This document shows, piece by piece, positions 4,940 through 61,474 of a DNA stretch of 64,000 bases (position 1 is the stretch's first letter; the number at the start of each line of letters is the position of its first letter). Both the position numbers and the translations under genes were made by a program. The notes under the pieces were generated by a model. The model did no database searches. It had not been told where the DNA came from and was given only the letters and a program-made list of their open reading frames with translations. Source of the stretch: a virus (taxonomy: Duplodnaviria > Heunggongvirae > Uroviricota > Caudoviricetes); the IMG/VR virus record IMGVR_UViG_2718218135_000001, positions 49,251 to 113,250 of that record. One strand, written 5' to 3'.

Positions 4940-4985
4940 GGCGCCATGAAGGTGCTGATTTAACGGAAAAAGGAGTTTTCCAACA

Positions 4986-5732: not shown

Positions 5733-5749
5733 TCGTGACGTGACTAAGC

Positions 5750-5775
5750 AGAGGCTCAGGAAGAGCCTCTCTTTT
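5750..5775 (+). terminator. terminator-like hairpin after major tail gene
   Basis: AGAGGCTC-AGGAA-GAGCCTCT stem-loop followed by CTTTT. Confidence 0.5.
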
Positions 5776-5791
5776 AAAAGGATTTTAACCA

Positions 5792-6109
5792 ATGACCAAA
5801 TTACTCGATCTCGACTCCATTCTACCTCCGAAGAAAAGTATCAAGTTCGGCGGTCAGGAATACCCCATCGTTGAAATGACAGTTGGTCTGTTCGTCTCCA
5901 TCAAGCAGATGGAAGGCAAAGATCTTCAGAACATGTCTCCTGTAGAGCAGGTTACTGCTTACGCCGACCTGGTTCGCAAGGTCATCCCATCCGTGCCGGA
6001 CGCTGTACTGGAAAAACTGACTGTTCCGCAGCTTCAGCAAATCTTCACCTTCGCTATGGAAGTGATTGATGAAGAGAACGAAAAAGCGGCTGGTGAAGGG
6101 GCAAAGTAA
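5792..6109 (+). CDS. tail assembly chaperone (gpG-like)
   Basis: 105-aa acidic protein between major tail and tape measure genes; RBS AAAGGA. Confidence 0.45.
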   Translation: MTKLLDLDSILPPKKSIKFGGQEYPIVEMTVGLFVSIKQMEGKDLQNMSPVEQVTAYADLVRKVIPSVPDAVLEKLTVPQLQQIFTFAMEVIDEENEKAAGEGAK

Positions 6110-6189
6110 TTTCCCGCGATGAATCCGGGGTAAAGACCGTATCGATAGATCTCGGATTCTATTTCAGTCGTGTAGTTGCTCACTACGCC

Positions 6190-6459
6190 GTGTCGCCATT
6201 AGAGCTGCTGGGCGTCCCTCTAACGATGTTCTGGATGCTCAGTCGCAACATCGACCGTCTACGTGCGGAAGAGGATGTCCGCAACCTGCAAGTCGCTCGC
6301 GCTGCCCAGGCAGATGGCGAGGGCGTGAAGGCGTTCATGGAGGGTTTGCAACTCAGGATTGGAAGACCAGTCGTAACCGATAAAGTCTACGATCCGCGCA
6401 AGGATAAGGCAGACCCTGACGCCAAAGAGCAACTGATGCAAATTTTTGGCAGAGGATGA
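6190..6459 (+). CDS. tail assembly chaperone T-like segment (possibly expressed as G-T fusion by -1 frameshift)
   Basis: Frame is -1 relative to 5792..6109 and open from 6097; ends just before tape measure start. Confidence 0.3.
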   Translation: MSPLELLGVPLTMFWMLSRNIDRLRAEEDVRNLQVARAAQADGEGVKAFMEGLQLRIGRPVVTDKVYDPRKDKADPDAKEQLMQIFGRG

Positions 6460-6466
6460 CAAGGGA

Positions 6467-23530: not shown

Positions 23531-24052
23531 TTATTCTTCGAACAATTTTTCGATAGATTTTGTTGGATAGAACAAAGAACGATCGTTGTTACCAACCAGC
23601 TGGATAAAGCCCAAACTTTTATAAAACGCCCTAGCTTTATCGTTCAACGCCTCAACGAAAAGCCCATGAATGCCTACCGCAAGAGATGCATTGTACACAA
23701 CACGCATTGCGTGAGTTACAAGCATTGAGCCAAACCCCTGACCTTGAAGAGATTTGTCCAAAGCCAGTCTGCCTAAAGTGATACTTGGGACATTCCGATA
23801 AGGCACTTTCTTTTGCTGACTCTTTGAAGGTAAGGTTTCTTTCTCAAAGCAGCTGCCTGACAAAGTGTAATAACCTAATACCTTTGGTATTTCTTCTTTA
23901 GTGCAAAGCACATAAGCGCGAAGAATTTTTCCTTCATGCTGTCTTTTTAAGTGGTTGGTCAAAAATGCGTTTAGTGACTCTTCGCCGCAATCAAAACCGT
24001 TTAGATCATAATCTTTCTCTCCAGAGAAAATCTCGATCGTCGTATTGCTCAC
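23531..24052 (-). CDS. GNAT-family acetyltransferase toxin (TacT/ItaT-like)
   Basis: GNAT motifs (QGQGFGSMLV); GTG start 7 nt after upstream DUF1778-type ORF with GGAG RBS. Confidence 0.65.
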   Translation of the reverse strand: MSNTTIEIFSGEKDYDLNGFDCGEESLNAFLTNHLKRQHEGKILRAYVLCTKEEIPKVLGYYTLSGSCFEKETLPSKSQQKKVPYRNVPSITLGRLALDKSLQGQGFGSMLVTHAMRVVYNASLAVGIHGLFVEALNDKARAFYKSLGFIQLVGNNDRSLFYPTKSIEKLFEE

Positions 24053-24059
24053 GAGTAAA

Positions 24060-24329
24060 TTACTCCATGCTTTTCAGACGATTGGCAGCTCGTTTCAGCT
24101 TGTCGTTCGGTGCCGGAGGATTGCTTATAGCATCCATAACCAGATTCCAGGACTCTTCACTTAGAACCAGTCTACGGTGTTGCTCTATCACCTTCACGGC
24201 ACGTTCGGATGCACTGCTAACCATGAACTGGGTAATGCTCTGGTTAGACATTGCGGCAGCTTCCTCGATGATGCTTTTATCGTCATCGGTTAATCTCAAA
24301 TCGATGCGCTGCTTTTTCAGTGCGGACAT
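24060..24329 (-). CDS. DUF1778-type (RHH) antitoxin
   Basis: 89-aa protein MSALKKQRIDLRLTDDDKSIIEEAA... typical of GNAT-toxin partners; upstream of and co-directional with toxin. Confidence 0.65.
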   Translation of the reverse strand: MSALKKQRIDLRLTDDDKSIIEEAAAMSNQSITQFMVSSASERAVKVIEQHRRLVLSEESWNLVMDAISNPPAPNDKLKRAANRLKSME

Positions 24330-24598: not shown

Positions 24599-24614
24599 GA
24601 AAACAAGTTGTTTC
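24599..24614. promoter_or_regulatory. conserved intergenic motif B copy (GAAAACAAGTTGTTTC)
   Basis: Palindromic AAACAA-N-TTGTTT element about 35 bp upstream of parA-like start. Confidence 0.5.
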
Positions 24615-24648: not shown

Positions 24649-25314
24649 ATGACCAAGATCATTGTGGTTGGCGGCACAAAAGGCGGCCCAGGCAAATCTA
24701 CCGTTGCCCAGCAAATTGCGGTATGTCTCAAAGTTAAAAAGAAAAAGAAGGTTCACGTCACCGATATCGATATCCAGCGCACCACGACCAGCTGGTGTGA
24801 AGACCGTCGCCAGAACGAAGATCTTGAACTGATCCCGTTCGCTTATGTGCAGGACGACATCGTCAAACATCTTAAATCGCTTCAGGGGCGAACTGATTAT
24901 GTAGTGGTAGATGCTGGTGGCTTTGACTCCGAAATTCAGCGTCTGGCGATGCTTATGGCTGATGTAATCATCATCCCGCTGCGCCCTAAACGTCGTGATT
25001 TGAAATCTCTGCGTGATATCGACCCGATTATCGACAACGTTCGCAATGTGAACGAGAAAGTTAAGATCCGCGCGGTAATAAACCAGTGTCCGTCATTGCC
25101 TTCCCAGGTATCACGTATTCTGGCCGCGAAGGAAATTGTCGAAACTTTCGGCATCGAGGCTGCGCCGGTCAATCTGTACAACCGTAACGTTTATGACGAT
25201 GCGGAAGAGGCAGGTCGTTCTATCTTTGAAATGACTGGCGCTGAACGCGATAAGAAGGCAGAAGCCGAGTTCGAAGAGTTTGTAGATTACATCTTGAGTC
25301 TGGAGGAAGAATAA
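24649..25314 (+). CDS. ParA/ParF-type partition ATPase
   Basis: Deviant Walker A GGTKGGPGKST at N-terminus; 221 aa; followed by small basic protein. Confidence 0.7.
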   Translation: MTKIIVVGGTKGGPGKSTVAQQIAVCLKVKKKKKVHVTDIDIQRTTTSWCEDRRQNEDLELIPFAYVQDDIVKHLKSLQGRTDYVVVDAGGFDSEIQRLAMLMADVIIIPLRPKRRDLKSLRDIDPIIDNVRNVNEKVKIRAVINQCPSLPSQVSRILAAKEIVETFGIEAAPVNLYNRNVYDDAEEAGRSIFEMTGAERDKKAEAEFEEFVDYILSLEEE

Positions 25315-25673
25315 TGTCCATGAGAATGGGAGACCTTGCAAAGCGCAATGAGCCTAAAGAACCGGCCAAAAGCAGCACTCCACTGCGCCAGCCAGTCAGA
25401 CCGCAGGGGCGTCCGACTCGTGGCAAAGAGAAAATTAAAAGTCGCACAATGTCACTGGAGGACGAATACTTCGAACTGCTGGAAATGATGAAGTTCATCC
25501 CTCGTTTCGAGAAGTTCACCCGTTCTGACGTGATTCGCGCCGCCATTTTCCATCTGGCAGAGAAGTCACCGCAGGAAATCGAGGACATCGTGAAACTTAA
25601 CGAGGCGATCACAGCTGCCGATGTCACGATGCGTACCGATGAAATCAAACGAGAGTTGATGAAGAAAGGTTAA
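25314..25673 (+). CDS. putative partition centromere-binding protein (ParG/ParB-like partner)
   Basis: Small basic ORF translationally coupled to ParA-type gene (GGAGG RBS, ATG overlaps stop). Confidence 0.4.
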   Translation: MSMRMGDLAKRNEPKEPAKSSTPLRQPVRPQGRPTRGKEKIKSRTMSLEDEYFELLEMMKFIPRFEKFTRSDVIRAAIFHLAEKSPQEIEDIVKLNEAITAADVTMRTDEIKRELMKKG

Positions 25674-27527: not shown

Positions 27528-27542
27528 GAAAACAAATTGTTT
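27528..27542. promoter_or_regulatory. conserved intergenic motif B copy (GAAAACAAATTGTTT)
   Basis: Identical core to copy at 45164; about 20 bp upstream of helicase start. Confidence 0.5.
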
Positions 27543-43128: not shown

Positions 43129-44232
43129 ATGAAAAACACTTTTGATAAAGCACGCGCAGCAGAAAACACCTCTAGAGAAGCCATCGAGTATCTCGAACGC
43201 GCTTCCGGTTTGTCAGCAGTGTCGACCACCAATTTCGACGGTGACATGTCGTTTTCTTCCGCATTCATGTTATTCACTCGCTTATCTTTGCTGATAACGA
43301 GACGTCGACCTGAAATAGCTGTTCATTGTATTTTGATACATGTAATGCCGCATATCTGTGAAGTAAAAGTAAGTGACATTAGTAGGGTTTTAGTCAACCA
43401 GCTGGTGAACCCATTAATACTTGAGGGCAAGATCGTCCAGGGCAGACGTGTGTTCTCGCTGATGAAGCAGTTTCTCAGTTGGTGTGCATTTCAGGGCTTA
43501 ATTGATACATCCCCATTGAACGATATGTCGCTTAACAGAGTAGCCGGTGGCGCGAAGCCCACGCCGCGCGAGCGCAAACTGACCGACGCAGAGGTCTGGG
43601 TCTTTTGGAATGTATGGGACTACTTCAACGTATGTGAGGGTACAAAGTGGGCGGCCAGATTATGCCTTGTAGCGGCCAGACGACCAGATGAAGTGCTCCG
43701 AGCTAAAAGATCAGAATTCAACCTCGAATATAATTTATGGAATCAAGGAACGAGGAATAAATCGGCTCGCCAGCACTCGTTACCATTAAGCCCGCTAATG
43801 CGCAAATGTGTTGAGGAGCTGATCAAATACGGAAAAGGCAGCCAGTGGCTTGTTCCTTCAAACAAGAAACAGGGTGAGGATGTGCCAATGTCTAAGGTGG
43901 CCATATCACAGGCGTTGAGAAGGATTTTAGAACGTCCAGAGTTGATGGAGCTTGAGCCATTTACTCCCCGAGATTTGCGTCGTACTGCGCGTAGTTACTT
44001 CCCCGCGTTAGGCATAAGTCAGGAGGTATCCCGCAAAATTATGAACCACAGTCTTGAGGGGATAGATCGAGTATACGATCGACACGATTATATAGACGAG
44101 ATGCGAGACGCCTTAAACAGTTTTTCGGCGTACATCGCATCAATCGTAGAGAAACAGGATTTAGAGGAGATAGATCATAAGTTCAAGGGAGATCGACTCG
44201 CTACTGAGCTAATCCGTGTAAATTTCTCATAG
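43129..44232 (+). CDS. tyrosine recombinase / integrase
   Basis: C-terminal catalytic region RDLRRTARSYF ... MNHSLEGIDRVYDRHDY (R..H..R..Y pattern). Confidence 0.65.
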   Translation: MKNTFDKARAAENTSREAIEYLERASGLSAVSTTNFDGDMSFSSAFMLFTRLSLLITRRRPEIAVHCILIHVMPHICEVKVSDISRVLVNQLVNPLILEGKIVQGRRVFSLMKQFLSWCAFQGLIDTSPLNDMSLNRVAGGAKPTPRERKLTDAEVWVFWNVWDYFNVCEGTKWAARLCLVAARRPDEVLRAKRSEFNLEYNLWNQGTRNKSARQHSLPLSPLMRKCVEELIKYGKGSQWLVPSNKKQGEDVPMSKVAISQALRRILERPELMELEPFTPRDLRRTARSYFPALGISQEVSRKIMNHSLEGIDRVYDRHDYIDEMRDALNSFSAYIASIVEKQDLEEIDHKFKGDRLATELIRVNFS

Positions 44233-44616
44233 CGACTTGATTGCCTCAACAACCCGCTCCGACGCACCACGTTGGTCACCGAAACGTCGACGGAAGGCTT
44301 CCAGAACTAGTTTTTCATCTTTAGTCAGAGGGGCTGTGCCTTCGTCGCGAAAAAACTCTAACAGCTCTGGATGACGCTCTTCCAGCACCATTAGCATCAA
44401 TCGGACCGAATCGGCATCCAATGCTTTAGCCAACGCTCTGACCTTGTCGATCGGAAGCGGGATTTTGCCGCTCTTGATAAGTGAAAGATTGTTAGGATTT
44501 TTATAGCCTGCTTCTTTCGCGATGGTCGCCTGGCTTTTCGGAGAAATCGCGATTAAAGCGTCAATGTAAGCAGCGTAGCGACCTACTTTAGCTTCTGTTA
44601 TTTCGTTGGTAGCCAT
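44227..44616 (-). CDS. HTH transcriptional regulator (candidate repressor)
   Basis: HTH-like QATIAKEAGYKNPNNLSLIKSGKIP; divergent from 45198 operon with motif B in the shared region. Confidence 0.45.
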   Translation of the reverse strand: MATNEITEAKVGRYAAYIDALIAISPKSQATIAKEAGYKNPNNLSLIKSGKIPLPIDKVRALAKALDADSVRLMLMVLEERHPELLEFFRDEGTAPLTKDEKLVLEAFRRRFGDQRGASERVVEAIKSL

Positions 44617-44872
44617 AATTATCAACCTGCGTGTTTTGATTTTATATGGTAAGTGCTTACTGATATTACATCAAAGGTTAGTGTTGTAAAGACTTATCTA
44701 TTTTTTTTCGTAGAGTTATTGACCGCAAAAGGCTTCATTAATAGACAACTATCTAAAAAACAACTCATTTAAGAACTTAAAACTAAGTTGTATTTGATAT
44801 ATAAGTATTCCGTATTGATACAATAGGTAGTAGTATTGCAAGGCATTTACGTGTTCAGTTGGATGATATGAA

Positions 44873-45085
44873 ATGAAAAAAATAACTTCTAATTTGATCG
44901 CCCTTGAGGTCGGACATACGGTTTCAATTGACGATGATGGGGCAGCAGCCATACTCACTGAACTGCCAACAAAGTCTTTGTTACTTGACATGAAAGACGC
45001 AACCGCATACATCTTTGAGCTAAAGGGCAAGTGCTTCACTCTCATCAATACCGGCTGCGGTTCAGTAGCCGTCCGCACTATTTAA
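44873..45085 (+). CDS. small hypothetical protein
   Basis: 70-aa ORF in AT-rich divergent region. Confidence 0.2.
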   Translation: MKKITSNLIALEVGHTVSIDDDGAAAILTELPTKSLLLDMKDATAYIFELKGKCFTLINTGCGSVAVRTI

Positions 45086-45163
45086 CACACCCCTCCCATC
45101 CTCTCTAGCGCCTGTACGAACAGATTAGATGCCTGTTCGTACAGTGATAAATTACGCACATCA

Positions 45164-45179
45164 GAAAACAAATTGTTTT
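45164..45179. promoter_or_regulatory. conserved intergenic motif B copy (GAAAACAAATTGTTTT)
   Basis: Palindrome 19 bp upstream of VWA gene ATG at 45198. Confidence 0.5.
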
Positions 45180-45197: not shown

Positions 45198-47426
45198 ATG
45201 TCCAAAAAAACCACCAAAGCTGTACTGAAAGAGGTGCAGGATTTTCGCGACTGTGTAAAACGAGTTGTAGCGATGCTTTCAGGTAAACAGATACCTGTTG
45301 CAGAACGAGGCAATGAAGCATATGTCCGCTATAACCGGCGCGGCGAACCAGTGCTGGTAAACATCCCATCTATACCGGACGACGCGTCGCCAACCCTCAT
45401 GAACGCAGTGCGTGGTTTTCTCGACCATGAGGTGGCCCATATTCTCTTTACTGAACCGAAAGTCGCAATGCAGATGCGCGAAAGAGGAAAGGCTCCGTCT
45501 ACGGGGCTTTGGAATGCGCTGGAAGACGTTTTTATTGAACGCAGAATGGGGCAGGTCTTTAACGGAACCCGGCGTAATTTACTTGCAACACAGAGTCTGG
45601 TTATCGACAAATACTTCAGGAATAAAGTACCAGAAGCGGTTTTAGCCTGTCACGGAGACCAGCGTGAATTGTTTTTGAAATTCTTCCTTTGCCCGGTCGT
45701 CCGCGCCTGGGATGGACAAAGCCCCTTCATCGATTTTATGGAAGAACACTGGCGCCTTATCGAGAGGCCGGTAGCCTTACTAAAGGAGCATGGTATAGAC
45801 GTGGCCGTTCGCAATATGTCGAACACTGAGGATTGCGTGAAGGTCGCTGCTGCTATAGCCCAAATCATGCAGGATATGAAAGACAAGCCAGAGGGCAAAT
45901 TACCAGAACTTAAATCATCTGCCAGAAAGCCGTCGGAGAGCAAAGACGAGTCCGAGGAAACGCCAGAATCAGGTGACGAGCCGTCTCATGGTGACTCTGC
46001 ATCTAAGCCTGCCAAAGGCGAAGGCGATGACAAGGAAGAACGAGAAGATGATGCATCAGAAGAGGAAGATTCTGGGGATTCCGATTTGCCTGATTCGTTA
46101 GATAAGGACTTACCTACACACGTTAAAGATATTAGTGATACAGAAAGTAAATATACAGAAGCAGGCCACGAAGAGTCAGGAGACACCCCAGAATCCGATG
46201 CTATCGGCATGAAATCAAGTGACTCTGACACTGATGGTGATGACGGTGAGGACTCCGATACTGATCGTGGGGAAACTGAAGAAGACGTCGAAGGCAAAAA
46301 AAATAAAGATGGTGCGGAAGTGCCCAAAGACAGTGAGTCTGGCTTTGTTCCTGCGCCGGATGAAATGACTCTGGAGGAGGCGCTAAAGGCGCTCGACGAG
46401 ATGGAAGACGGAATCGGTGAAATGACCGAAGACGCACTGTCGGCCACCATCAGCAAAGAGCTTATGAGCGTCTCACCTTCTGATTATCGGCCATACGATC
46501 GATCATACGACTTTATCGGGTTGATTGATGGAGCCGAAGAGCATGTGAAGCGCACCAGAAAGACGTTCGGTGCAATACCAATGCACTCACCAGTCGACCG
46601 CTACCGTATGGTGCCAGAAGGCAGAAAACTCTTTGAACTGAAAATCGAAAAACATCTGTCTGCAGGCGTTTCTTCGACGCTGGCCAAAGACCTGGAGCGG
46701 GCCATCGCCAGCCGCAACCGAGTTCAGTTTATACCTGGTCAGAGGCGTGGGCGGATACATGGCGCGAGCCTGTATCGTCTGGCAATGAACGACGACCGAG
46801 TGTTCCGCAAGAAGGAAGACCATAGAGCGGTGAACGCGTGTGTCCAGCAGGTCATCGACTTGTCCGGCTCAATGGATGGCGTGAAGATTCAACTGGCCCT
46901 AGCCAGTGCCTATACCATTGCGGATGCTTTAGATCGTATCAATGTCCCCAACATCATCACCGGCTTTACCACGTTCGGTAGCCCAGATTATGAAACCAGG
47001 TCGAAGCGCGGGTTTACACGCTTCGAGGCGCTCATGCTGCCCATTATCAAAAACTGGAATGAGAAAGCAAACTCTCCAGAGATCCGTGCTCGCATGGGAT
47101 GCGTATGTGAGACGTTCCCACTGCTCAATAACGTCGATGGTGAGAGTGTCGCGCAACTGGCTACCCTGTTTGCAGGGCGAATGGAGGACAAAAAGATCAT
47201 GCTGGTTATGAGTGATGGGGAGCCATGTGCTACAGGTAGTGGATTCCATCAGCATTTACGAACCGTCACCAAAGAAATTGAGACCTTGAGCGACATCGAA
47301 CTGATGGCTATCGGCATTCTGACCGACGAACCACGGCGTTACTACAAAAATTACGCACTGGTTAACAGTGTTGAAGAGCTAGGGCCGTCAGTCGTCACTG
47401 AGTTATCTCGTATCATTCTTGGGTAA
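45198..47426 (+). CDS. VWA-domain protein (CobT-like) with long acidic tract
   Basis: MIDAS motif DLSGSMDG; Asp/Glu/Ser-rich region about 45950-46400; ATG at 45198 preferred. Confidence 0.55.
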   Translation: MSKKTTKAVLKEVQDFRDCVKRVVAMLSGKQIPVAERGNEAYVRYNRRGEPVLVNIPSIPDDASPTLMNAVRGFLDHEVAHILFTEPKVAMQMRERGKAPSTGLWNALEDVFIERRMGQVFNGTRRNLLATQSLVIDKYFRNKVPEAVLACHGDQRELFLKFFLCPVVRAWDGQSPFIDFMEEHWRLIERPVALLKEHGIDVAVRNMSNTEDCVKVAAAIAQIMQDMKDKPEGKLPELKSSARKPSESKDESEETPESGDEPSHGDSASKPAKGEGDDKEEREDDASEEEDSGDSDLPDSLDKDLPTHVKDISDTESKYTEAGHEESGDTPESDAIGMKSSDSDTDGDDGEDSDTDRGETEEDVEGKKNKDGAEVPKDSESGFVPAPDEMTLEEALKALDEMEDGIGEMTEDALSATISKELMSVSPSDYRPYDRSYDFIGLIDGAEEHVKRTRKTFGAIPMHSPVDRYRMVPEGRKLFELKIEKHLSAGVSSTLAKDLERAIASRNRVQFIPGQRRGRIHGASLYRLAMNDDRVFRKKEDHRAVNACVQQVIDLSGSMDGVKIQLALASAYTIADALDRINVPNIITGFTTFGSPDYETRSKRGFTRFEALMLPIIKNWNEKANSPEIRARMGCVCETFPLLNNVDGESVAQLATLFAGRMEDKKIMLVMSDGEPCATGSGFHQHLRTVTKEIETLSDIELMAIGILTDEPRRYYKNYALVNSVEELGPSVVTELSRIILG

Positions 47427-47442
47427 TAGCTTTACCCTTAAA

Positions 47443-47465
47443 AATAAGTAACTACTTACTATACA
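47443..47465. promoter_or_regulatory. conserved intergenic motif A copy (AAAATAAGTAACTACTTACTATA)
   Basis: AAGTA / TACTT arms; about 55 bp upstream of AAA+ gene. Confidence 0.5.
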
Positions 47466-47521
47466 GCCTAATATATTTCTATAAGATATACCCCACAAAC
47501 GACAAACAGTAAGGAAAAAAC

Positions 47522-48757
47522 ATGACCGCTACTGCACTACAGCAAGAAGAACATTTGCCGGAAGCCATCGTCTGCAAGTGGTGTGGCAAATCCTTTCATT
47601 ACCTGAAATCCCATATCTCTATGGGCCGTTGCGAGAATATTCCTGAGTCTGCGAAGGGTCTGGACGTGGACGAAGTGGTGAAGATGTACACCTCTGCGTT
47701 TCCAGATGAACCAACGATCTCTCGCACGGCACTGGCCAAACTCAATGAGAAGCGTGCCGAAAAGCATTCAGGCGAAGGAAAAGTAGCGGAGATTAGCGCA
47801 CATCCGGGCTACGCAGGAACGGTCGAATACAAGACCGAACTGGTGGCCGCGCACGAGCTGCTTGGCGTAACGATCAAAGAGCTGGGTACACCACGCGGAA
47901 AACCACTACAGGTGACAGTCAACGTCAACACGCCCTATCCGGAGTTCGTACCTGAAGCGAAGAAAAACTATGTGTATGGCGACTTCGACCTGATCAAGGA
48001 CATCTTTATGATGCTGGAAATCGGAATCCCGGGTTATCTCTGGGGCCATGCAGGAACCGGTAAATCTTCTCTTCCTACGCAGCTATGTGCCCTGCTAAAT
48101 CGACCACTGATCCGCGCCCAGCATACGGCGTCTATGGAGGAAGCGCACGTTACAGGCCAGATCCTCGCTCGCGATGGTTCCACCTATTTCGAACCGGGTT
48201 TACTAGCGCTGGCGATGAAAAATGGTTGGGTTTACCTCGCTGATGAATATGACTTCGCGTTCCCGCAGATTCTGGGTGTGTATCAGCCAGTTCTTGAAGG
48301 AGAGCCGCTGATCATCAAAGAGGCAACTGCGGACTGGCGCCGCATCACCCCGCATAAACGCTTTGCCTTCATTGGCACTGGCAACACTAACGGCTCTGGC
48401 GACGAAACAGGTCTCTATCAAGGCACAAACATCCAGAACGCAGCGAACTTCTCGCGTTTTGGCATTGTTTCAAACGTGAAGTACATGAGTACGAAGGCAG
48501 AAGTCAACATGCTGGCTGAAGCAGGCGTCATCCGCGAATACGCCGAGAAGATGGTGAAGTTCGCGAATCTTATCCGTGAAGGTTATGAAAAGCATCAGAT
48601 TAGCCAGCCAATCGGGCCTCGTGAGCTGCTGCTGTCCGCCAAAATCGGAATGATGCGCGGTGATTTCTCTGCCGGCATCGAAAAGTCGTTTATCAATAAA
48701 CTTCCATCCACGTCTGCACAGGCAGCGCGTGAAGTGGTTCAGAAGATCTTTGGTTAA
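47522..48757 (+). CDS. AAA+ ATPase (MoxR/CobS-like) with N-terminal zinc-ribbon
   Basis: Walker A GHAGTGKS, Walker B VYLADEYD; CKWCGKSFHYLKSHISMGRC zinc motif. Confidence 0.6.
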   Translation: MTATALQQEEHLPEAIVCKWCGKSFHYLKSHISMGRCENIPESAKGLDVDEVVKMYTSAFPDEPTISRTALAKLNEKRAEKHSGEGKVAEISAHPGYAGTVEYKTELVAAHELLGVTIKELGTPRGKPLQVTVNVNTPYPEFVPEAKKNYVYGDFDLIKDIFMMLEIGIPGYLWGHAGTGKSSLPTQLCALLNRPLIRAQHTASMEEAHVTGQILARDGSTYFEPGLLALAMKNGWVYLADEYDFAFPQILGVYQPVLEGEPLIIKEATADWRRITPHKRFAFIGTGNTNGSGDETGLYQGTNIQNAANFSRFGIVSNVKYMSTKAEVNMLAEAGVIREYAEKMVKFANLIREGYEKHQISQPIGPRELLLSAKIGMMRGDFSAGIEKSFINKLPSTSAQAAREVVQKIFG

Positions 48758-48937
48758 TCGTGCGTAAAGGATGTTTCGGCTCTCTTATCGCAGCGTCTGA
48801 AACTGGCAGTGCTTGTTTGGCATGTCCGGATAGACCCGAGTGCCACCAGTCAGCCAAAGAGGTTGCGATTTCGATGTATGGGAAGTTCGTTGGCTTCCCC
48901 AATGACAAAATCAAGAAAACCAGAAAGGTAAAAGCAC

Positions 48938-51900
48938 ATGAAGGCTCTGATGGTCAGAACTGACTTCTCCCTGGGAGAGTCAGCTCTAAAAGCAGAAAAC
49001 GCGGTGAAAATCGCGAGAGACGCTGGCTACACCGCTGTCATTTCCGCTGACAGCATGAACATTGCCAGTGTGATCCCCCTGCAGCGTGCCGCTGGCGACG
49101 ACATGGCGGTTATTTGTGGTGTTAAGCTGAATGTGGTCGACGATCCGACATACGAGCATCGCGCCCGCCTGGCGAAAGAGTCAGGAGGATGTATGGAATC
49201 ATTGGTGCGTGATCGAAGCTACTGCTTCACGGCACTGATAAAGAATGAGCAAGGTTATCGCGACGTGTGCGAACTGATGACCTTAGCCAACAAGCGCGAG
49301 CAATTCTACTTTGTTCCGCGTCTGGCACTTGACCAGCTGGCGGCCGCATATGCCAAAGGCAACATCATCCTGCTGACGTCCGACATTGGCAGTGTATTCC
49401 AGCGCCGGGACTTCGCAAAGATTATCGGGACGCTGGTGACAGCTGGAGGACGCGATAACTTCTACAGCGTGGTTTATCCGCACCCTACCCCATTCTACGA
49501 CCAGATTAACGTCCGGGCGATGAAAGTGGCGAGCGCACTGAAAATAGAGCCAGTGGCGTTCTATCCCGCTTATTACGAAGCGATCGACGACGCTGACATT
49601 AAAGACATTGCGCACATGGTTACGAACAACATCAAAATCGACCAGCCGCATCGTCTGCGCATCCCCCACCAGCGAGATAACGCTGTTAATGGTCGTCGCC
49701 ATCTCCTTGAAGCGCTGAAAGCCTTCTCCGTTCGCATGGGCGTACCGGTAACAGCTGCAATGGTCTCAACAACGCAGGACACCATTATTGAAGCCTGCAC
49801 ATGGCGCTGGCATGAACTGCCACCAGCACTGCCCAAGATGGCAGACGACGAGCCTGCAACGCTGATGAAGCTGGCTGTCGCGGGGCTACGCAAGCGTCTA
49901 ACTACTAAAGAGTTTGGCTACACACCACCGGCTTCTGAGCACCGAGTGTATGTTGAGCGACTGAAGTACGAAATGGACACACTGACCCGTCTGGGCTTCT
50001 GTGGCTACTTCCTGATGGTACGCGATCTGATGAATCACAGCCGTGAAACAGGAATACCGGTTGGGCCAGGTCGTGGTTCCTCTGCCGGTTCTCTGGTGGC
50101 GTGGTGCATAGGCATAACCAACGTCGATCCTATCCGTCACGGTCTTCTGTTTGAGCGTTTCATCAACCCTGAACGTCTTGACTTACCGGATGCGGATCTG
50201 GACTTCAGCCAGGCACGTCGTCATGAGGTGATCGAGTATCTGAATGAACACTATGGCGAAGATTACGTTGCCGGTATTCCAAACTTCACCTATCTGGGCG
50301 CCGCTTCTGCGCTGCGAGACACTGCGCGTATTTACGGTGTCGACGCTGCGGATATGTCGGTATCCAAAGAGTTCAAGAATCTGGAAGACGATAGCCTGTC
50401 TCTGGAAGAGCTGCGCGAGCAACTGGCCAGCCTGGACAAATACGCCACGAAAAACCCGGAAGCGTTCAAAGCGGCGTGTAAGCTGCAAAGCCTGATGCGT
50501 GGTTTTGGTCGTCACGCTGCGGGGATGATCGTCGCTGGCGTTCCACTGGTAGAGCGCACGCCCGTCGAGCTGCGTGGCAACGCTCGCTGTATTGCGTTCG
50601 ATAAACGTTACTGCGAGGCGATGGGGCTGATTAAGCTGGACGTTCTCGGTCTGGCAACGCTCGATCTGCTGGATAGCGCGAAACGCTACATCAAAGAGAG
50701 TACCGGGGAAGACATCAATCTCGATGCTATTCCACTGGACGATCGTAAGGTTCTGGATGGGTTCGCTGCAGGGTACACGCAGGGCGTATTCCAGCTGGAG
50801 TCCGGCCCCATGCGCAAGCTGCTTAAAGATCTGGGCGGTGGCATTGAGCCAATGAGCTTCAAAACCGTTGTCGCCACGACCGCACTCTTCCGACCTGGCC
50901 CGATCCAATCCGGCATGTTGGACGACTATGTCTCCGTGGCCAAAGGCTTCATGGCTCCACATTCAATTCATCCGCGTCTTGAGGAAGTCACCCGGGAGAC
51001 TAATGGTGTTTTGCTCTATCAGGAACAAATCATGCAAAGTTCCCGAGTACTTGCCGGGTTCTCTATGGCCGAAGCAGACGCTCTGCGTTCCGCTATCGGT
51101 AAAAAGAACATGGATAAGATGAAAGCGATCGGCAGCGATTTTGTAGAACGAGCACAAGCAGGCTGGGTGACACTGTCACTCAAAAATGGAGGTACTGTAG
51201 AGGTTCACAAACACGCAAAACTGGATTGCTCAGACGGTAAGCGTAGAAGCTACAGCGAGGCTATTAGTGACGGCATAGACTACGTGGAGATCGTCTCTGA
51301 ACAAGAAGGTCTCAGTAAGGAAAAAGCCCAAGAAATATGGGACGCCTTTGAGAAGTTCGGTGGATATGCCTTCAACAAATCACACAGTGTTGCTTATTCT
51401 TTAATCAGCTATCAGTCTATGTGGTTAAAGACACATTACCCTGCTGAGTTCTTCGCTGCTGCGCTCACCATTCTGGGCGAGGATAAGCACCAGGGGCTGG
51501 TTAAGGATGCGCTGACCTATGGCATTCGCGTATTGCCACCAGACGTTAACGTGTCATCTAACCGAATTGAGATCCGCACGCTGGAAGACGGCAGTCAGGT
51601 TCTGTATGCACCATTCTCTGCTGTGAAAGGCTGCTCTGAGAATGGTTGCCAGGCCATCATGAGAGCGCGTGAGAAAGTTGGCGGCAAATTCGAGTCACTT
51701 GAGCAATTTGAGGAAGCGGTCGAGAAGCGTGCATGTAACAGCCGGGTACGCGAATCACTGCAAAAAGTCGGTGCGTTCGCATCGATTGAGTCTGGCAGTC
51801 TGCCAGCGACAGATCCGGAACGGCTGCGCGACCAGGCAGAGTTGATGGGTAATCTGGTGATCGACGCTGTAAAAGCCTCTCGACCGTTCGAGATGAACCC

Positions 51901-52444
51901 TAAGCGCTCTGCTGAAGTAAATGTACTGATGACGCGCATGGCGGCCGAAATGGGGCTGGGAGACGATCTAATCCGTCCAAGCATTGGTATTAAGCCAAAA
52001 ATCATGGTTATTCTGGACAACGCGAACGGCAATGATGGGCGTACCGGCTACTTCATGGAGAACGGTTACGACGACTTTAAGGCGAAGTTGCTTACTGCAG
52101 GCGATCTGCGTATGGGCGATCTCTACGTCACCGGCGTGTGCAAAAAGGTGAAGGACAAAGAGAAGGACTACACCAAAGACGAGATCGGTCAGTTCACCGA
52201 CTTTATGCGTGAAGAGATCAATCTGGTGCGTCCGACCTATGTACTGACGTGTGGCAGCCGGGCGACGTCGCTCTTCAACAACAAGAGCAAACCATCCGAC
52301 CTGGTTGGACGCAAAGAGTATCTGCCGGAGCTGGATGCGACCGTTTTCTACGGATTTAACCCGAATATCCTTTACTTCCGACCGGAAGAAGGAGAGCGAC
52401 TGGAGGCCATTCTGACTGATATTGCGGAGACGATAAATAAGTAA
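48938..52444 (+). CDS. DNA polymerase III alpha-type (DnaE-like) replicative polymerase
   Basis: GYFLMVRDLMNHSRETGIPVGPGRGSSAGSLVAWCIGITNVDPIRHGLLFERFINPERLDLPDADLDF matches DnaE palm signature; 1168 aa. Confidence 0.8.
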   Translation: MKALMVRTDFSLGESALKAENAVKIARDAGYTAVISADSMNIASVIPLQRAAGDDMAVICGVKLNVVDDPTYEHRARLAKESGGCMESLVRDRSYCFTALIKNEQGYRDVCELMTLANKREQFYFVPRLALDQLAAAYAKGNIILLTSDIGSVFQRRDFAKIIGTLVTAGGRDNFYSVVYPHPTPFYDQINVRAMKVASALKIEPVAFYPAYYEAIDDADIKDIAHMVTNNIKIDQPHRLRIPHQRDNAVNGRRHLLEALKAFSVRMGVPVTAAMVSTTQDTIIEACTWRWHELPPALPKMADDEPATLMKLAVAGLRKRLTTKEFGYTPPASEHRVYVERLKYEMDTLTRLGFCGYFLMVRDLMNHSRETGIPVGPGRGSSAGSLVAWCIGITNVDPIRHGLLFERFINPERLDLPDADLDFSQARRHEVIEYLNEHYGEDYVAGIPNFTYLGAASALRDTARIYGVDAADMSVSKEFKNLEDDSLSLEELREQLASLDKYATKNPEAFKAACKLQSLMRGFGRHAAGMIVAGVPLVERTPVELRGNARCIAFDKRYCEAMGLIKLDVLGLATLDLLDSAKRYIKESTGEDINLDAIPLDDRKVLDGFAAGYTQGVFQLESGPMRKLLKDLGGGIEPMSFKTVVATTALFRPGPIQSGMLDDYVSVAKGFMAPHSIHPRLEEVTRETNGVLLYQEQIMQSSRVLAGFSMAEADALRSAIGKKNMDKMKAIGSDFVERAQAGWVTLSLKNGGTVEVHKHAKLDCSDGKRRSYSEAISDGIDYVEIVSEQEGLSKEKAQEIWDAFEKFGGYAFNKSHSVAYSLISYQSMWLKTHYPAEFFAAALTILGEDKHQGLVKDALTYGIRVLPPDVNVSSNRIEIRTLEDGSQVLYAPFSAVKGCSENGCQAIMRAREKVGGKFESLEQFEEAVEKRACNSRVRESLQKVGAFASIESGSLPATDPERLRDQAELMGNLVIDAVKASRPFEMNPKRSAEVNVLMTRMAAEMGLGDDLIRPSIGIKPKIMVILDNANGNDGRTGYFMENGYDDFKAKLLTAGDLRMGDLYVTGVCKKVKDKEKDYTKDEIGQFTDFMREEINLVRPTYVLTCGSRATSLFNNKSKPSDLVGRKEYLPELDATVFYGFNPNILYFRPEEGERLEAILTDIAETINK

Positions 52445-55983: not shown

Positions 55984-58323
55984 ATGGCAAAAGGCAAATC
56001 CGCACTGGCACTGGCGCTGAAAAAGAAAATCGGCAGCAATGACGAGATTCAGAAGGTCTCCCACTGGATTGACTCCGGTTTCCCTCCACTGAACAAAGCC
56101 ATTTCCGGACGTTACGACGGTGGTTTTCCGTGTGGGCGTATCGTTGAAGTCTTCGGGCCACCAAGCGCGGGGAAATGTGTTACCGCAGACACCATGCTGC
56201 TGACGGAGCGTGGAATTGTAACAGTGAAAGAACTGTTTGAGATTGAGGGGCACAAAGCAACATGCACTACTCGCGATGTAGAGCATAACGTTGGACTCAT
56301 CAATGAAAATGGCGTGATAGAGAAGACCTCACACCTGACATGGAACAACCGTCGCAAATTCAAGCGCATTAAGCTGGCATCAGGGGGTTACATCGAGGCT
56401 ACGTTCCGTCACCCAATTCGTGTGGTTGACGACTTAGGCAATATCGTCTGGCGGTATGCTGAAAAAATCAGTGTAGGCGACACGATTCCTTCAATGGTTG
56501 GCACACATCAATTCGGCGATCAGCACTTGGATGCCAATATCGCAAAACTGATGGGCTATTTAATTGCTGACGGATACGTGGCCTCTGAAAATTCTGTGCA
56601 TTTTTCTAACACAGATCCATTCATCAAGGATGAGTACTACCGCCTCATTTCGCTGGTATCAGACAAGATGCCAGTTACGAGAAAACATAACGGCTCGGAA
56701 GACCATGTGCTGTTTAGCAAAGAGGTGCGTTCGCTGCTTTTTAAAGAATATGGTCTGGAGTATGAGAAAGCTGCTGGCAAGCAGGTTCCGTTGAGTGTGC
56801 GTCGCGCCAATAGCGAGGCTCAAATTGCATTCCTTCGCGGCTACTTTGAGCTGGAATGCCACGTCAATGATGGTCGCTGCATTGAGGTTGTGAGCGCGAG
56901 TGGGCTGCTGCTACAGCAAATTCGCCTCATGCTCCTGAATCTGGGGATTACGTCAACTATCTCTGAAAAACACGTCGCAGGTTATAAAAACATATATTAC
57001 CGGCTGTCATTCAGTGGCTCTAACTACGACCTTTTCCTGTCAACGATTGGGTTCGAGTCTCCGGCTCGTTTAGCAGTGGCAACCAAACGGGACATTAGTT
57101 TTGACCGCACTTATTTAGGCTACGTTCCGCACATCAGCGGCTTAGTGAAATCACTCTACGAGTCACTCACCAAGACCTCTCGTAAAGACTACGTTCTGGT
57201 AGATCACGTTATTGGCCGCGGCGATCGTGTCGGAATAGACAAACTGCGAGAAATCTATGTCTCCTTCATTGGCAGAAAGAATCGTTTTAACGAGCATCTG
57301 TTTGCACAACTGGCAGCGGTAATTGACTCTAACTTGTTCTACGACGAAGTCGTGGCTATTGAGGAAGGTGAAGCACCAACGTTCGACGTAGCGATGCCGG
57401 AAACACACTCTTTCTGGTCTAACGGGATTATCAGCCACAACACATTCCTCGCGACGGCTGCGATGGTGTCAGCACAAAAACAGGATGGTCTGGCCGTATT
57501 CCTTGACCACGAAAACAGTTTCGACGTTGGTCTGGCGGTAGCGAACGGACTGAACGCCGACGAAGACGACGGTCAGTGGGTCTACAAACAGCCGGATACC
57601 TTCGAAGACTCCGTAGAGCTGATCGGCACAATCCTCAAGCTGGTGCGCGACGAAGAGCTTATTCCGGAAACAGCCCCTATCTGCATCGTAGCCGACTCTC
57701 TGGCGTCGATGGTTCCGAACTCGAAGGCTGAGAAGTTCGACAAGATGGCAGAAGGCACTGCGAAGGACAAAGATCAGCTGAACATGAACGACAACACGGC
57801 GCTGGCGCGCGCGACAAGTGCGAACTTCCCTACTCTGGCGCTTTGGGCGCGTAAGTACAACGCGTGCATCATCTTCTTGAACCAGGTGCGTACCAAAATT
57901 GGTGTGATGTTTGGCGATCCGACTACGTCTCCGGGTGGCGACTCTCCGAAGTTCTACGCGTCGGTGCGCATCCGTCTGGGTGCATCCGTCATGAAGGATG
58001 GCAAAGAGAAGATCGGACAGGACGTTGGCGCCGAGTGCATTAAAAACAAAGTCGCGCCTCCGTTTGGCAAATGCTCATGGAAATTCTACTTCGACCCGAC
58101 TCGCGGGCTGGACGTCGTCGAGTCTCTGGTTGAATACATGCTGGAGGAAGGATACCTGCCCAAGAGCGCCAGCGGGCGTGTGGAAATTGGCGAGAAGAAA
58201 TACACCAAATCACAGATCGTCGAGATGTACCGGGAGAAGCCATTAGCTGAAATCATTGCTGCGTTACAGGCAATAGATGACAGGCGCGAGAAGACATCAC
58301 CGACAGATGAATTAGAAGATTAA
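55984..58323 (+). CDS. RecA-family recombinase (UvsX/Sak4-like) precursor containing an intein
   Basis: Exteins give GPPSAGK|T Walker A, FLDHENSFD, IVADSLASM, PGGDSPKFYASVRIRL RecA-like motifs; AAAAGGAG RBS. Confidence 0.75.
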   Translation: MAKGKSALALALKKKIGSNDEIQKVSHWIDSGFPPLNKAISGRYDGGFPCGRIVEVFGPPSAGKCVTADTMLLTERGIVTVKELFEIEGHKATCTTRDVEHNVGLINENGVIEKTSHLTWNNRRKFKRIKLASGGYIEATFRHPIRVVDDLGNIVWRYAEKISVGDTIPSMVGTHQFGDQHLDANIAKLMGYLIADGYVASENSVHFSNTDPFIKDEYYRLISLVSDKMPVTRKHNGSEDHVLFSKEVRSLLFKEYGLEYEKAAGKQVPLSVRRANSEAQIAFLRGYFELECHVNDGRCIEVVSASGLLLQQIRLMLLNLGITSTISEKHVAGYKNIYYRLSFSGSNYDLFLSTIGFESPARLAVATKRDISFDRTYLGYVPHISGLVKSLYESLTKTSRKDYVLVDHVIGRGDRVGIDKLREIYVSFIGRKNRFNEHLFAQLAAVIDSNLFYDEVVAIEEGEAPTFDVAMPETHSFWSNGIISHNTFLATAAMVSAQKQDGLAVFLDHENSFDVGLAVANGLNADEDDGQWVYKQPDTFEDSVELIGTILKLVRDEELIPETAPICIVADSLASMVPNSKAEKFDKMAEGTAKDKDQLNMNDNTALARATSANFPTLALWARKYNACIIFLNQVRTKIGVMFGDPTTSPGGDSPKFYASVRIRLGASVMKDGKEKIGQDVGAECIKNKVAPPFGKCSWKFYFDPTRGLDVVESLVEYMLEEGYLPKSASGRVEIGEKKYTKSQIVEMYREKPLAEIIAALQAIDDRREKTSPTDELED
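56176..57441 (+). other. intein with LAGLIDADG homing-endonuclease domain, inserted in RecA P-loop
   Basis: Begins with Cys (CVTADTMLL), ends SHN followed by +1 Thr; LAGLIDADG-like blocks LMGYLIADGYV and FLRGYFELECH; length 1266 nt = 422 codons in frame. Confidence 0.7.
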
Positions 58324-58880: not shown

Positions 58881-59041
58881 CTTTATGGTGTCATAAACTT
58901 AAATCTAGCGCCGGGTAGAACAAGTTAATCGAACGATGTAGCGGCCATTTAGGCGTTACAGAAAGAACAGAATTTTAAATTTATAGTGAAGCCGTTGCAG
59001 CAACTTTGTGGGGTGCAACCAACACTGAACAGGAAAAGAAA

Positions 59042-61474
59042 ATGGATCATAGTGTACATAACAAGCTCATCTCATTTATATGGAACATTGCCGACGACTG
59101 TTTACGTGATGTGTACGTTCGCGGTAAGTACCGCGATGTGATTTTACCTATGGTGGTATTACGACGTTTAGATACGTTACTTGAACCCACCAAAGAAGCC
59201 GTGCTTGAAGAGGTCAAGTTCCAAAAAGAAGAGATGCAAGCCACGGAGCTTGATGATGAACCATTGAAGGCGGCTAGTGGTTATGTTTTTTACAATACAT
59301 CTAAATGGACCCTGAAATCCCTGTTCAACACCGCAACGAATAACCAACAGATATTACTCGCCAACTTTGAAGAGTACCTGCTTGGCTTTAGCGATAATGT
59401 TAAAGAAATCATTGAATGCTTTAACCTCAAGTCGCAAATTCGTCACATGGCCTCAAAGCAAGTCCTTCTTGATGTCGTCGAAAAGTTTGTTTCCCCTTAC
59501 ATCAACTTAACTCATGAAACGATCGAAGACCCAGATGGCAACAAGATGCCAGCCCTTACTAACCTGGGTATGGGGTACGTGTTCGAAGAGTTGATCCGTA
59601 AGTTCAACGAGGAGAATAACGAAGAAGCCGGTGAGCACTTTACACCTAGGGAAGTGATTGAGCTGATGACACACTTGGTTTTTGACCCAGTGAAAGAGCA
59701 GCTACCATTGACCATGACCGTTTACGACCCTGCGTGTGGTAGCGGTGGTATGCTCACTGAATCTCAAAACTTCATTGAAGAGAAATACCCGAACGACAGC
59801 CGAGATATTTACCTTTACGGCAAAGAGATCAATGACGAGACCTACGCGATTTGTAAATCGGACATGATGATCAAAGGTAACAACCCTGAGAACATCAAGG
59901 TAGGCTCAACCTTGTCTACCGACGAGTTTGCGGCTTCTCGCTTTGACTTTATGTTGTCTAACCCGCCATACGGTAAGAGTTGGGCGTCTGAACAGAAGTA
60001 CATTAAAGACGGCAGTGATGTGATTGACCCGCGTTTTAAGGTTAGCCTGAAAGACTATTGGGGAAATCTCGAAGTGGTGGATGCCACGCCACGTTCGAGT
60101 GATGGCCAGCTGCTTTTCTTAATGGAGATGGTCAACAAGATGAAAGATCCGAGCGTAAGTCCATTAGGCAGCCGGATTGCCTCTGTTCATAACGGCTCAT
60201 CGCTCTTTACCGGCGATGCGGGCGGTGGCGAAAGTAATATTCGTCGCTTCATCATTGAAAACGACATGCTAGATGCCATCGTTCAGTTACCTAATAACCT
60301 GTTCTATAACACTGGCATTACCACTTACATTTGGGTGTTGAACAACAATAAACCTGAGGCGCGTAAAGGTAAGGTGCAATTAATTGATGCCAGCTTGCTC
60401 TACCGTAAGTTGCGCAAGAACTTAGGTAACAAAAACTGCGAATTTGCGCCTGAGCACATCACGGAAATTACCGATACTTACCTCGCGTGTAAGGATGTTG
60501 AAAGAGCACTGGATGCAAACAATGATCCTGTTGGCATCGCCAGTAAGGTATTCAGCAATGACGATTTTGGCTACTACAAAGTCACTATAGAGCGCCCAGA
60601 TCGCCGCAAAGCCAAGTTTACTCAAGACGCAATAGCCCCACTGCGTTTTGATAAGCAACTTAGTGAAGTGATGGAGTACGTGTACGCAGAGCACGGCGAA
60701 CGTGTTTACGAAAAAACTGGCTACGGGTCAGATCAGAAAAAGAGCTTCTTAAAATCCATCGAGAAAGACATTCTTTCTTGGTGTGAAGATAACGACATCA
60801 GTCTCAATGCTAAGGCTAAGGCCAAACTGCTTGATGTGAAACACTGGCTGGCGCTAAAAGCATTGCTTGAAACTGCACAAACGCTGATGGCTGACATCGG
60901 TAGCATTGAATTTGATGACTTCAATAGCTTTAAAACCCAAGTTGATAAATCGCTAAAAGCCCATGCTATTAAGCTTTCAGCACCTGAGAAAAATGCCATT
61001 CTTCACGCGGTGAGCTGGTATGACGAAACCGCCAAGAAAGTGGTTAAAAAGGTAGTTAAATTAACGGGTGATAAATTAAACGACCTGCTGGAGCGCTATG
61101 AGTGTGAAGTCGCTGACTTGCCAGATTTTGGTTATTACCCCGTTCCTTCAGCAGAAGGCGGTAAAAAAGGCGAGTATATCACTTACGAGACCAATTCAGA
61201 CCTGCGAGATACAGAATCTGTTCCATTAAAGCAAAGCATTTACCAGTACTTCCTAGATGAAGTGAAGCCTCATGTCGATGAAGCATGGATAAACCTAGAT
61301 ACGGTAAAAATTGGCTATGAAATCAGCTTCAATAAGTATTTCTACCGTTATAAACCGCTGCGTAGTTTAGAAGAGGTCGCAACCGACATCATCAACCTAG
61401 AACAAAAAGCCGAAGGTCTCATTGCGCAGATATTGGGTGTTAAAGTGGCGGAAGTAAAAAAGGTTCAGGGGTAA
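59042..61474 (+). CDS. type I restriction-modification methyltransferase subunit (HsdM-like, long form)
   Basis: N6-adenine MTase motif IV NPPYG and motif I-like DPACGSGGML; followed by HsdS; ATG at 59042 preferred. Confidence 0.7.
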   Translation: MDHSVHNKLISFIWNIADDCLRDVYVRGKYRDVILPMVVLRRLDTLLEPTKEAVLEEVKFQKEEMQATELDDEPLKAASGYVFYNTSKWTLKSLFNTATNNQQILLANFEEYLLGFSDNVKEIIECFNLKSQIRHMASKQVLLDVVEKFVSPYINLTHETIEDPDGNKMPALTNLGMGYVFEELIRKFNEENNEEAGEHFTPREVIELMTHLVFDPVKEQLPLTMTVYDPACGSGGMLTESQNFIEEKYPNDSRDIYLYGKEINDETYAICKSDMMIKGNNPENIKVGSTLSTDEFAASRFDFMLSNPPYGKSWASEQKYIKDGSDVIDPRFKVSLKDYWGNLEVVDATPRSSDGQLLFLMEMVNKMKDPSVSPLGSRIASVHNGSSLFTGDAGGGESNIRRFIIENDMLDAIVQLPNNLFYNTGITTYIWVLNNNKPEARKGKVQLIDASLLYRKLRKNLGNKNCEFAPEHITEITDTYLACKDVERALDANNDPVGIASKVFSNDDFGYYKVTIERPDRRKAKFTQDAIAPLRFDKQLSEVMEYVYAEHGERVYEKTGYGSDQKKSFLKSIEKDILSWCEDNDISLNAKAKAKLLDVKHWLALKALLETAQTLMADIGSIEFDDFNSFKTQVDKSLKAHAIKLSAPEKNAILHAVSWYDETAKKVVKKVVKLTGDKLNDLLERYECEVADLPDFGYYPVPSAEGGKKGEYITYETNSDLRDTESVPLKQSIYQYFLDEVKPHVDEAWINLDTVKIGYEISFNKYFYRYKPLRSLEEVATDIINLEQKAEGLIAQILGVKVAEVKKVQG

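Follow-up and report, generated by a model that had tools for sequence, protein, structure and literature searches.

The window analyzed here is a 64,000-nucleotide stretch of a Caudoviricetes virus (IMG/VR record IMGVR_UViG_2718218135_000001, positions 49,251 to 113,250), and our subject is a pair of adjacent genes at 45198–48757 encoding a CobT-like protein with a von Willebrand factor A (VWA) domain and a CobS-like AAA+ ATPase. The element carrying them is an SSU5-type phage-plasmid of E. coli, and the pair is the known, so far uncharacterized "cobT/cobS" of such phage-plasmids. Sequence comparison indicates that these are not cobaltochelatase subunits. The CobT-like protein carries a metallopeptidase motif on a zincin-like domain, the CobS-like protein carries a Ros/MucR-type zinc finger, and the genes lie within a replication module and are, in a relative, silent in the plasmid state. 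We favor, at roughly even odds (about 0.5), a reading in which the two proteins form a lytic-cycle AAA+/VWA/metallopeptidase machine that remodels and cleaves proteins in the service of DNA replication or host takeover.

45198–47426, plus strand: cobT-like gene, 742 amino acids; Pfam CobT (1.9e-35) and CobT_C (1.3e-108), phrog_1576 over its full length, Brucella CobT 9uka_G (4.8e-19)
47522–48757, plus strand: cobS-like AAA+ ATPase gene, 411 amino acids; Pfam AAA_5 (4.5e-15), Brucella CobS 9ujv (1.5e-25), NorQ and CbbQ as top Foldseek matches

A first-pass annotation of the window had proposed a VWA protein with a MIDAS motif (metal ion-dependent adhesion site) followed by a CobS/MoxR-like AAA+ partner. 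Both open reading frames (ORFs) are present as proposed, the MIDAS is complete and the ATPase motifs are intact, and the Pfam E-values of both proteins exclude a chance match. Each ORF has an AAGGA site, which lies 8 nucleotides 5' of the ATG of the cobT-like gene; the in-frame ATG at 45129 lacks a ribosome-binding site. With scores above the Pfam gathering thresholds (CobT, CobT_C and AAA_5), the adaptor plan of the first protein and the ATPase motifs of the second, the pair belongs to the CobT/CobS-like superfamily.

Region 45198–48757 is 91.9% identical to SSU5_049/050 of Salmonella phage SSU5, annotated there as "porphyrin biosynthesis". Matches occur in 274 plasmids from Enterobacter, Yersinia, Salmonella, Escherichia and Citrobacter, of which 30 reach at least 99% identity, and the complete 112-kb relative plasmid pLAO18 is 99.8% identical across the pair. 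Related pairs are also found on Acinetobacter plasmids and in Vibrio cholerae phages. Phage Cyrano (3797–7236) labels its pair 'dimethylbenzimidazole phosphoribosyltransferase' and 'cobalamin synthetase', a misannotation that arises because unrelated Salmonella enzymes bear the same names, CobT and CobS. A database search with the whole CobT-like protein returned near-identical E. coli sequences only, and when viral contigs were scanned with a CobS alignment, all the loci recovered were SSU5-like, with identities of at least 80%. The diversity described below comes from a search of a representative library with the N-terminal domain, and the distant gene contexts from the encoding contigs and a phage collection.

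Neither protein reaches the level expected of a subunit of the aerobic cobaltochelatase (EC 6.6.1.2). Against the NCBIfam equivalog models, the CobT-like protein scores 75.4 bits (TIGR01651, cut-off 759) and the CobS-like protein 85.4 (TIGR01650, cut-off 559). No CobN domain was found in the window ORFs of at least 500 amino acids, which encode the tape measure, tail tip, tail fiber, fimbrial usher, DnaE, intein-containing RecA and HsdM. Likewise, neither cob genes nor B12-dependent enzymes are annotated in pLAO18. E. coli is not known to synthesize cobalamin de novo, and the cobalamin route of Salmonella and Klebsiella is anaerobic and independent of CobN. By these sequence comparisons the pair is not orthologous to chelatase CobT/CobS. 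The first-pass annotation had described such pairs as having no established role, and had named clear orthology to chelatase subunits, with the full chelatase set present, as one outcome that would overturn its view; we find no equivalog-level orthology and no CobN.

One departure from a chelatase subunit is in the N-terminal domain of the CobT-like protein, where the first-pass annotation had made no mention of a metallopeptidase motif.

45198–45917, plus strand: N-terminal domain, residues 1–240; Pfam CobT family, zincin-like fold
45426–45440, plus strand: HExxH motif (H77-E78-V-A-H81), with partners E109, D110 and E114 on the next helix, from the conservation alignment

A search of 1.84 billion representative proteins with this domain yielded 976 clusters at E ≤ 0.001. 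Conservation was scored in an alignment of the window protein and 129 full-length representatives drawn from the best 150 (n=130; clusters at ≤50% identity). The HE..H residues are kept in 128/130 sequences, E109 and E114 in all 130, and D110 in 129; Pseudomonas phage nickie has lost both motif histidines. In Brucella CobT the aligned stretch is RGLGDSMALRQ, where DSMALR stands in place of HExxH (this segment was taken from a PDB alignment with a CobT fragment as bait). The model of the domain (predicted local distance difference test, pLDDT, 92.4) consists of a three-stranded sheet followed by helices. HExxH and a downstream glutamate, the pattern expected of an M48 peptidase, stand on a zincin-like fold in a protein whose Pfam sequence match is to CobT only. 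A preprint on cobaltochelatase independently terms CobT_N an M48C-like fold (bioRxiv 10.64898/2026.07.21.739949). Sequence search of the domain matched Pfam CobT alone and Foldseek returned no match, so the peptidase assignment rests on fold plus motif. On that basis, the intact HExxH…E site probably cleaves or tightly holds a client protein.

Among the zincin-fold neighbors of the N-terminal domain is ArdC, an antirestriction protein. The top sequence match of the domain profile is the anti-CRISPR AcrIIA26 (PDB 9zq6_B; E 0.0019 over 47 residues), an alignment confined to the N..ED.FIE…G helix (window residues ~100–145) that may be due to chance. Kinship with AcrIIA26 was set aside, since the match is too short and AcrIIA26 works by stoichiometric binding of Cas9. 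We also considered the weakest plasmid match, the "CobT" of Caballeronia sp. NK8 plasmid pNK83, as a reference for a true chelatase, and rejected it for lack of a cob operon and of HExxH. Its locus (4933–7780) is a stand-alone pair in reverse order, an AAA+ protein of 400 amino acids followed by a CobT-like protein of 546 that has a MIDAS and no HExxH, and it adjoins a two-partner secretion locus.

The remainder of the CobT-like protein follows the plan of its family.

45918–46487, plus strand: acidic disordered linker, residues ~241–430; 35% D+E, 20% S+T, 13% hydrophobic
46653–47423, plus strand: shaft segment and VWA domain, residues ~486–742; aligns with Brucella CobT 355–616
46857–46871, plus strand: MIDAS DxSxS motif (D554, S556, S558), invariant in the family alignment

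The stretch rich in Asp, Glu and Ser that had been put at about 150 residues is real and spans ~190. Its length varies among homologues, and no tandem DNA repeat was found in it. Brucella chelatase CobT has an equivalent disordered linker of ~90 residues that is unseen in the structures, and the acidic tract is therefore an ancestral trait of the family and nothing special to this element. The Brucella stretch that aligns with the C-terminal part of the window protein includes the shaft, Q373-R413, which enters the CobS ring. All five MIDAS residues (D554, S556, S558, N645 and D673) align with Brucella CobT D422/S424/S426/N518/D546.

The CobS-like protein combines an intact AAA+ module with an additional N-terminal region.

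47945–48754, plus strand: AAA+ module, residues 142–411; Walker A at nucleotides 48044–48067, Walker B D241-E242 at 48242–48247
47573–47632, plus strand: zinc finger of Ros/MucR type, C2H2-like (C18, C21, H31, C37; H26 also conserved), from profile and Pfam comparison

Walker A (residues 175–182) reads GHAGTGKS, and the invariant R312 and R367 align with the arginine finger R210 and sensor-2 R271 of Brucella CobS. The best Foldseek matches of the ATPase model, NorQ and CbbQ, fall between 6e-14 and 2e-12. Compared with Brucella CobS, the phage protein has an extra ~140 N-terminal residues, which bear the zinc finger, and stops at the equivalent of Brucella residue 315, without the residues that form the last helix, α10, a CobT contact in Brucella.

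The finger had been called a zinc ribbon in the first-pass annotation, a call that did not hold. The first 140 residues contain no second CxxC, and the ligands H31 and C37 lie on a helix, features at odds with a ribbon, which would have two CxxC (or CxxH) knuckles on beta-hairpins. The site in the window protein, C18-x2-C21-x9-H31-x5-C37, is instead a variant of the Ros arrangement C-x2-C-x9-H-x3-4-H. Homologues at ~45% identity read CxxC-x9-H-x4-H followed by "T.EEY..K(W/F/Y)P.AP". Exact Ros spacing occurs in 72 of 112 full-length homologues and a close variant in 24, and 9 have no such site. Pfam ROS_MUCR (PF05443) matches 13 of 26 homologues (best 1.3e-6), the window protein taken alone being below the Pfam threshold. 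The top PDB match of the finger-domain profile is Ros87 (2jsp; E 1.9e-5), and hhalign of the domain against Ros gave 94% probability. In the AlphaFold2 model residues 10–81 fold confidently, followed by a disordered linker (82–99) and the AAA+ body. Taken at the level of the family, these profile comparisons place the finger in the Ros/MucR kind. In the SSU5 clade a small insertion precedes C37, the probable fourth ligand. Ros/MucR domains bind DNA. By analogy, in the SSU5/DnaE-type clade the finger is probably what anchors the machine on DNA; the CobS proteins of cyanophages and of ICP2-type phages have no zinc finger.

Several described systems resemble the pair in part. Its closest solved relatives by sequence are those of Brucella melitensis CobSTN (PDB 9ujv/9uka; bioRxiv 10.64898/2026.07.21.739949). 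Like Brucella CobT, the phage protein has an M48-like N-terminal domain, an acidic disordered linker, a shaft and a VWA domain with MIDAS, and its partner has the AAA+ motifs of CobS. Unlike CobSTN, the phage pair is non-orthologous and without CobN, has HExxH in the N-terminal domain and a finger region on CobS, and lacks the α10 residues. The NorQ-NorD and CbbQ-CbbO systems share the logic of an ATPase ring with a VWA/MIDAS adaptor, but their adaptors have no zincin domain, their ATPases no zinc finger, and their metalloenzyme clients are known. Ros87 (2jsp) matches most phage homologues in its CxxC-x9-H-x4-H spacing and its 'EEY..K(W/F/Y)P' helix, while the phage finger differs in being fused to an AAA+ ATPase and, in the SSU5 clade, in its probable fourth ligand.

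The kind of pair is itself already described computationally, and its genes are known ones that carry annotations. In T4-like jumbo phages, Iyer et al. 2021 (PMC7824862) reported a MoxR and metallopeptidase-vWA pair, for which they proposed a part in virion assembly by analogy with the MoxR-vWA tail-assembly system of Acidianus two-tailed virus. The window pair fits that description, with the same predicted architecture of an ATPase and a peptidase-vWA co-chaperone, but differs in its replication context and in the zinc finger and dnaE linkage, which are not described there. Additionally, the cyanophage core gene cobS and a neighboring 'peptidase' form a viral cobST cluster (Liu et al. 2021, PMC8651126). 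These are the same two genes; however, the cyanophage CobS has no finger, and the proposed hijacking of CobN misfits enterobacterial hosts. Three results appear to be unstated in the literature searched: the Ros/MucR finger, the contrast in HExxH with real CobT, and the fact that pairs from several phage lineages are embedded in replication modules. Searches of that literature for a MucR finger on CobS, for cobS/cobT being essential outside B12 synthesis, and for the timing of cobS in cyanophage transcriptomes likewise found nothing.

The genomic context of the pair is a replication module, as the first-pass annotation had stated. DnaB-like helicase, primase and ligase genes lie upstream, and DnaE, single-stranded DNA-binding protein, 5'-3' exonuclease and RecA genes lie downstream. 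The local order is integrase, divergent repressor-like gene, 70-amino-acid ORF, cobT, cobS, 67-amino-acid ORF and dnaE.

44227–44625, minus strand: repressor-like gene, divergently oriented; shares 66% identity with Cyrano CYRAN_45 'putative repressor'
44873–45085, plus strand: 70-amino-acid ORF heading the transcription unit, at the position of the homologue CYRAN_46
48760–48963, plus strand: 67-amino-acid ORF between cobS and dnaE; phrog_6337 (5.7e-49), annotated as SSU5_051
48938–52444, plus strand: dnaE (DNA polymerase III alpha type), with PHP, DNA_pol3_alpha, finger and HHH_6 domains

The 67-amino-acid ORF begins 3 nucleotides past the cobS stop, overlaps the start of dnaE and contains CxxC-x5-C; in distant relatives its slot is taken by a sigma-70 region-2-like gene of ~220 amino acids. 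No promoter or terminator convincing beyond chance level was found between cobT and dnaE. The order cobT, cobS, small or sigma-like gene, dnaE, gp32, 5'-3' exonuclease and recA recurs at ~37–47% CobS identity in five metagenomic relatives, some of them marine, in Pseudomonas phage nickie and in Rhizobium phage RHph_N2_6. In the ICP2-like Vibrio podophage JSF27 the pair is found upstream of the genes for helicase and PolA. The T4-like cyanophage S-RIM8 has a "peptidase" gene, with cobS beside it, flanked by gp46 on one side and by the genes of the gp45 clamp and the gp44/62 clamp loader on the other, and this "peptidase" carries the HExxH…ED..IE motif and MIDAS of the window protein. That three unrelated types of replication module host the pair is suggestive of a link to replication.

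Expression was assessed from a published transcriptome of the E. coli LF82 lysogen, where the Cyrano homologues read 7.8 (cobT), 6.7 (cobS) and 10.1 (dnaE) and the repressor 95.8. The authors of that study place the Cyrano repressor 10-fold above the local background. The readings of the pair and of dnaE are at background level, which indicates that the pair is silent in the plasmid state.

Two sequence elements precede the cobT-like gene.

45165–45178, unstranded: palindrome AAAACAAATTGTTT, 20 nucleotides upstream of the cobT start; the shared motif
27529–27542, unstranded: palindrome, second copy; lies upstream of the gene for the DnaB-like helicase (27562–28902)
24600–24613, unstranded: third copy, AAAACAAGTTGTTT, upstream of parA (24649–25314)
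45112–45144, plus strand: inverted repeat with perfect 12-bp arms, CTGTACGAACAG / CTGTTCGTACAG, between the 70-amino-acid ORF and cobT

The palindrome, AAAACAA(A/G)TTGTTT, lies 20–36 nucleotides 5' of the start codons of three genes, parA, the helicase gene and cobT, with 6 strand-matches in the window against 0.86 expected, which bears out the earlier suggestion that the pair shares a motif with partition and helicase genes. The copy upstream of cobT is conserved in SSU5 and ~30 relatives. From its sequence and placement, the palindrome may act as a shared operator. The inverted repeat was also considered for this part and rejected, since it is unique in the window; what the genes share is the palindrome, found at 45165 in front of cobT. 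The repeat has an RNA fold z of -3.9, recurs without change in SSU5 and at 28 further loci, and in phage Cyrano its arms carry compensatory TA-to-CG changes. Because the ORF upstream of cobT is high in the LF82 data (log2 10.8) and cobT is low (near 5.9), the repeat suggests an attenuator or terminator.

Homology with Brucella CobST allows a working model of the machine. The CobS-like protein would form an AAA+ ring that grips the shaft directly ahead of the VWA domain and uses ATP to move this segment, and the N-terminal zincin domain would dock on the small AAA+ subdomain. The Brucella interface residues CobS E308/Q311/R312 correspond to E/Q/K near the C-terminus of phage CobS, and CobT D80 to the invariant phage D76. 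The MIDAS of the adaptor would then capture a client protein that the zincin site cleaves or holds, while positioning on DNA would fall to the zinc finger. We infer these ring-shaft mechanics, the protease activity, the DNA binding and the nature of the client from the likenesses set out above. The operon orf70-cobT-cobS-orf67-dnaE, divergent from the lysogeny repressor gene, would come on with lytic replication. Given silence in the plasmid state and such activation, the likeliest job of the pair is to remodel or process a protein for phage replication or early takeover. The earlier suggestion of replisome chaperoning remains plausible in light of the synteny in three phage lineages, while its alternative of host defense is disfavored by the lack of any PADLOC match and by background expression in lysogeny. 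Early phage genes cluster anyway, however, which weakens the case for replication from synteny.

A more specific version of the remodeler reading is speculative and, in this exact form, quite unlikely. Here a DNA-tethered machine would capture and cleave or evict a DNA-bound protein, such as a nucleoid silencer or a component of the host replisome or clamp, and thereby let the phage polymerase take over. The pair would then be a replication accessory common to DnaE-, PolA- and T4-type modules, mislabeled for 25 years as a B12 gene.

A role as a virion-assembly chaperone or protease, in which the MoxR-vWA pair folds or processes structural proteins, is unlikely. The same domain architecture was proposed for assembly in PMC7824862, and a protease motif would suit maturation cleavage. 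However, the pair lies in the replication or early block in every context examined and never in a morphogenesis block. Genes for the tape measure, tail tip and fibers occupy 6–21 kb of the window, while the pair is at 45–49 kb beside dnaE. Additionally, a zinc finger of DNA-binding type has no obvious role in assembly.

We likewise doubt that the pair is an anti-defense or host-takeover effector, active early in the lytic cycle, whose target for capture and cleavage is an immunity or nucleoid protein of the host, or, as a variant, a defense or exclusion system acting for the host. Its genes come first among the large ORFs of an early operon beside the repressor gene, a typical place for counter-defense, and both the zincin-fold neighbor ArdC and the weak profile match to AcrIIA26 point in this direction. 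The shortness of that match and the stoichiometric mode of AcrIIA26 count against it, and PADLOC-DB 2.0, searched at E up to 0.01, had no match for the CobT-like, CobS-like or ORF67 proteins. Strong conservation and a fixed replication synteny in distant phages also differ from the patchy turnover usual for anti-defense genes. The host-defense variant is further opposed by the LF82 lysogen readings.

It is improbable that the pair is a metal-cofactor chaperone in the manner of NorQ-NorD, CbbQ-CbbO and CobST, loading or reactivating a metal center such as the PHP domain of DnaE. The ATPase is structurally nearest to NorQ-NorD and CbbQ, the neighboring DnaE has a PHP domain, and adjacency to dnaE is conserved; yet the pair also occurs in PolA-type and T4 gp43-type modules that lack DnaE, and neither the HExxH site nor the zinc finger has a link to metal delivery.

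Least credible is an auxiliary metabolic role in which viral CobS-CobT joins host CobN and raises cobalamin synthesis, a hypothesis published for viral cobST clusters (Liu et al. 2021, PMC8651126) that has homology to CobS and CobT on its side and is followed by the database names 'porphyrin biosynthesis' and 'cobalamin biosynthesis', but that misfits this element given the sub-cut-off scores, the lack of CobN and the host physiology noted above, and is further opposed by real chelatase subunits lacking both the HExxH site and the finger, by the absence of any annotated B12-dependent enzyme in the element and by the presence of the pair in Vibrio cholerae phages and on Acinetobacter plasmids. 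Thus, it is very unlikely that the pair makes vitamin B12, and for the present host the hypothesis is close to refuted.

These distinctions matter beyond one element. The cobS/cobT genes are among the most often cited viral auxiliary metabolic genes; they belong to the core of marine cyanophages, are common in phage-plasmids of gut and clinical origin, and are routinely scored as vitamin-B12 metabolism in viromics studies. If the pair is in truth a replication-tied, protease-bearing remodeler, such inferences are wrong, and a widespread conserved function would be testable in SSU5 (Salmonella) and Cyrano (E. coli LF82) with four separable classes of mutants: Walker B, HExxH, MIDAS and zinc finger.

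Other features of the window were observed in passing. A GNAT-type toxin and DUF1778-like antitoxin (23531–24329, minus strand) adjoin the partition genes, a parA-like gene (221 amino acids) and one of 119 amino acids (24649–25673), and the palindrome copy at 24600 sits between the two sets. A PapC-type outer-membrane fimbrial usher (32112–34604, minus strand; E 6e-184) is cargo, with no SSU5 counterpart annotated at the matching place. An intein containing a LAGLIDADG homing endonuclease interrupts the RecA gene (55984–58323), whose pLAO18 homologue is named 'LAGLIDADG family homing endonuclease'. Lastly, HsdM, a type I restriction-modification methylase, is encoded at 59006–61474 near the window end, and at the corresponding end pLAO18 carries a different defense-like block (SNF2, DUF4391, methyltransferase and DEAD helicase).

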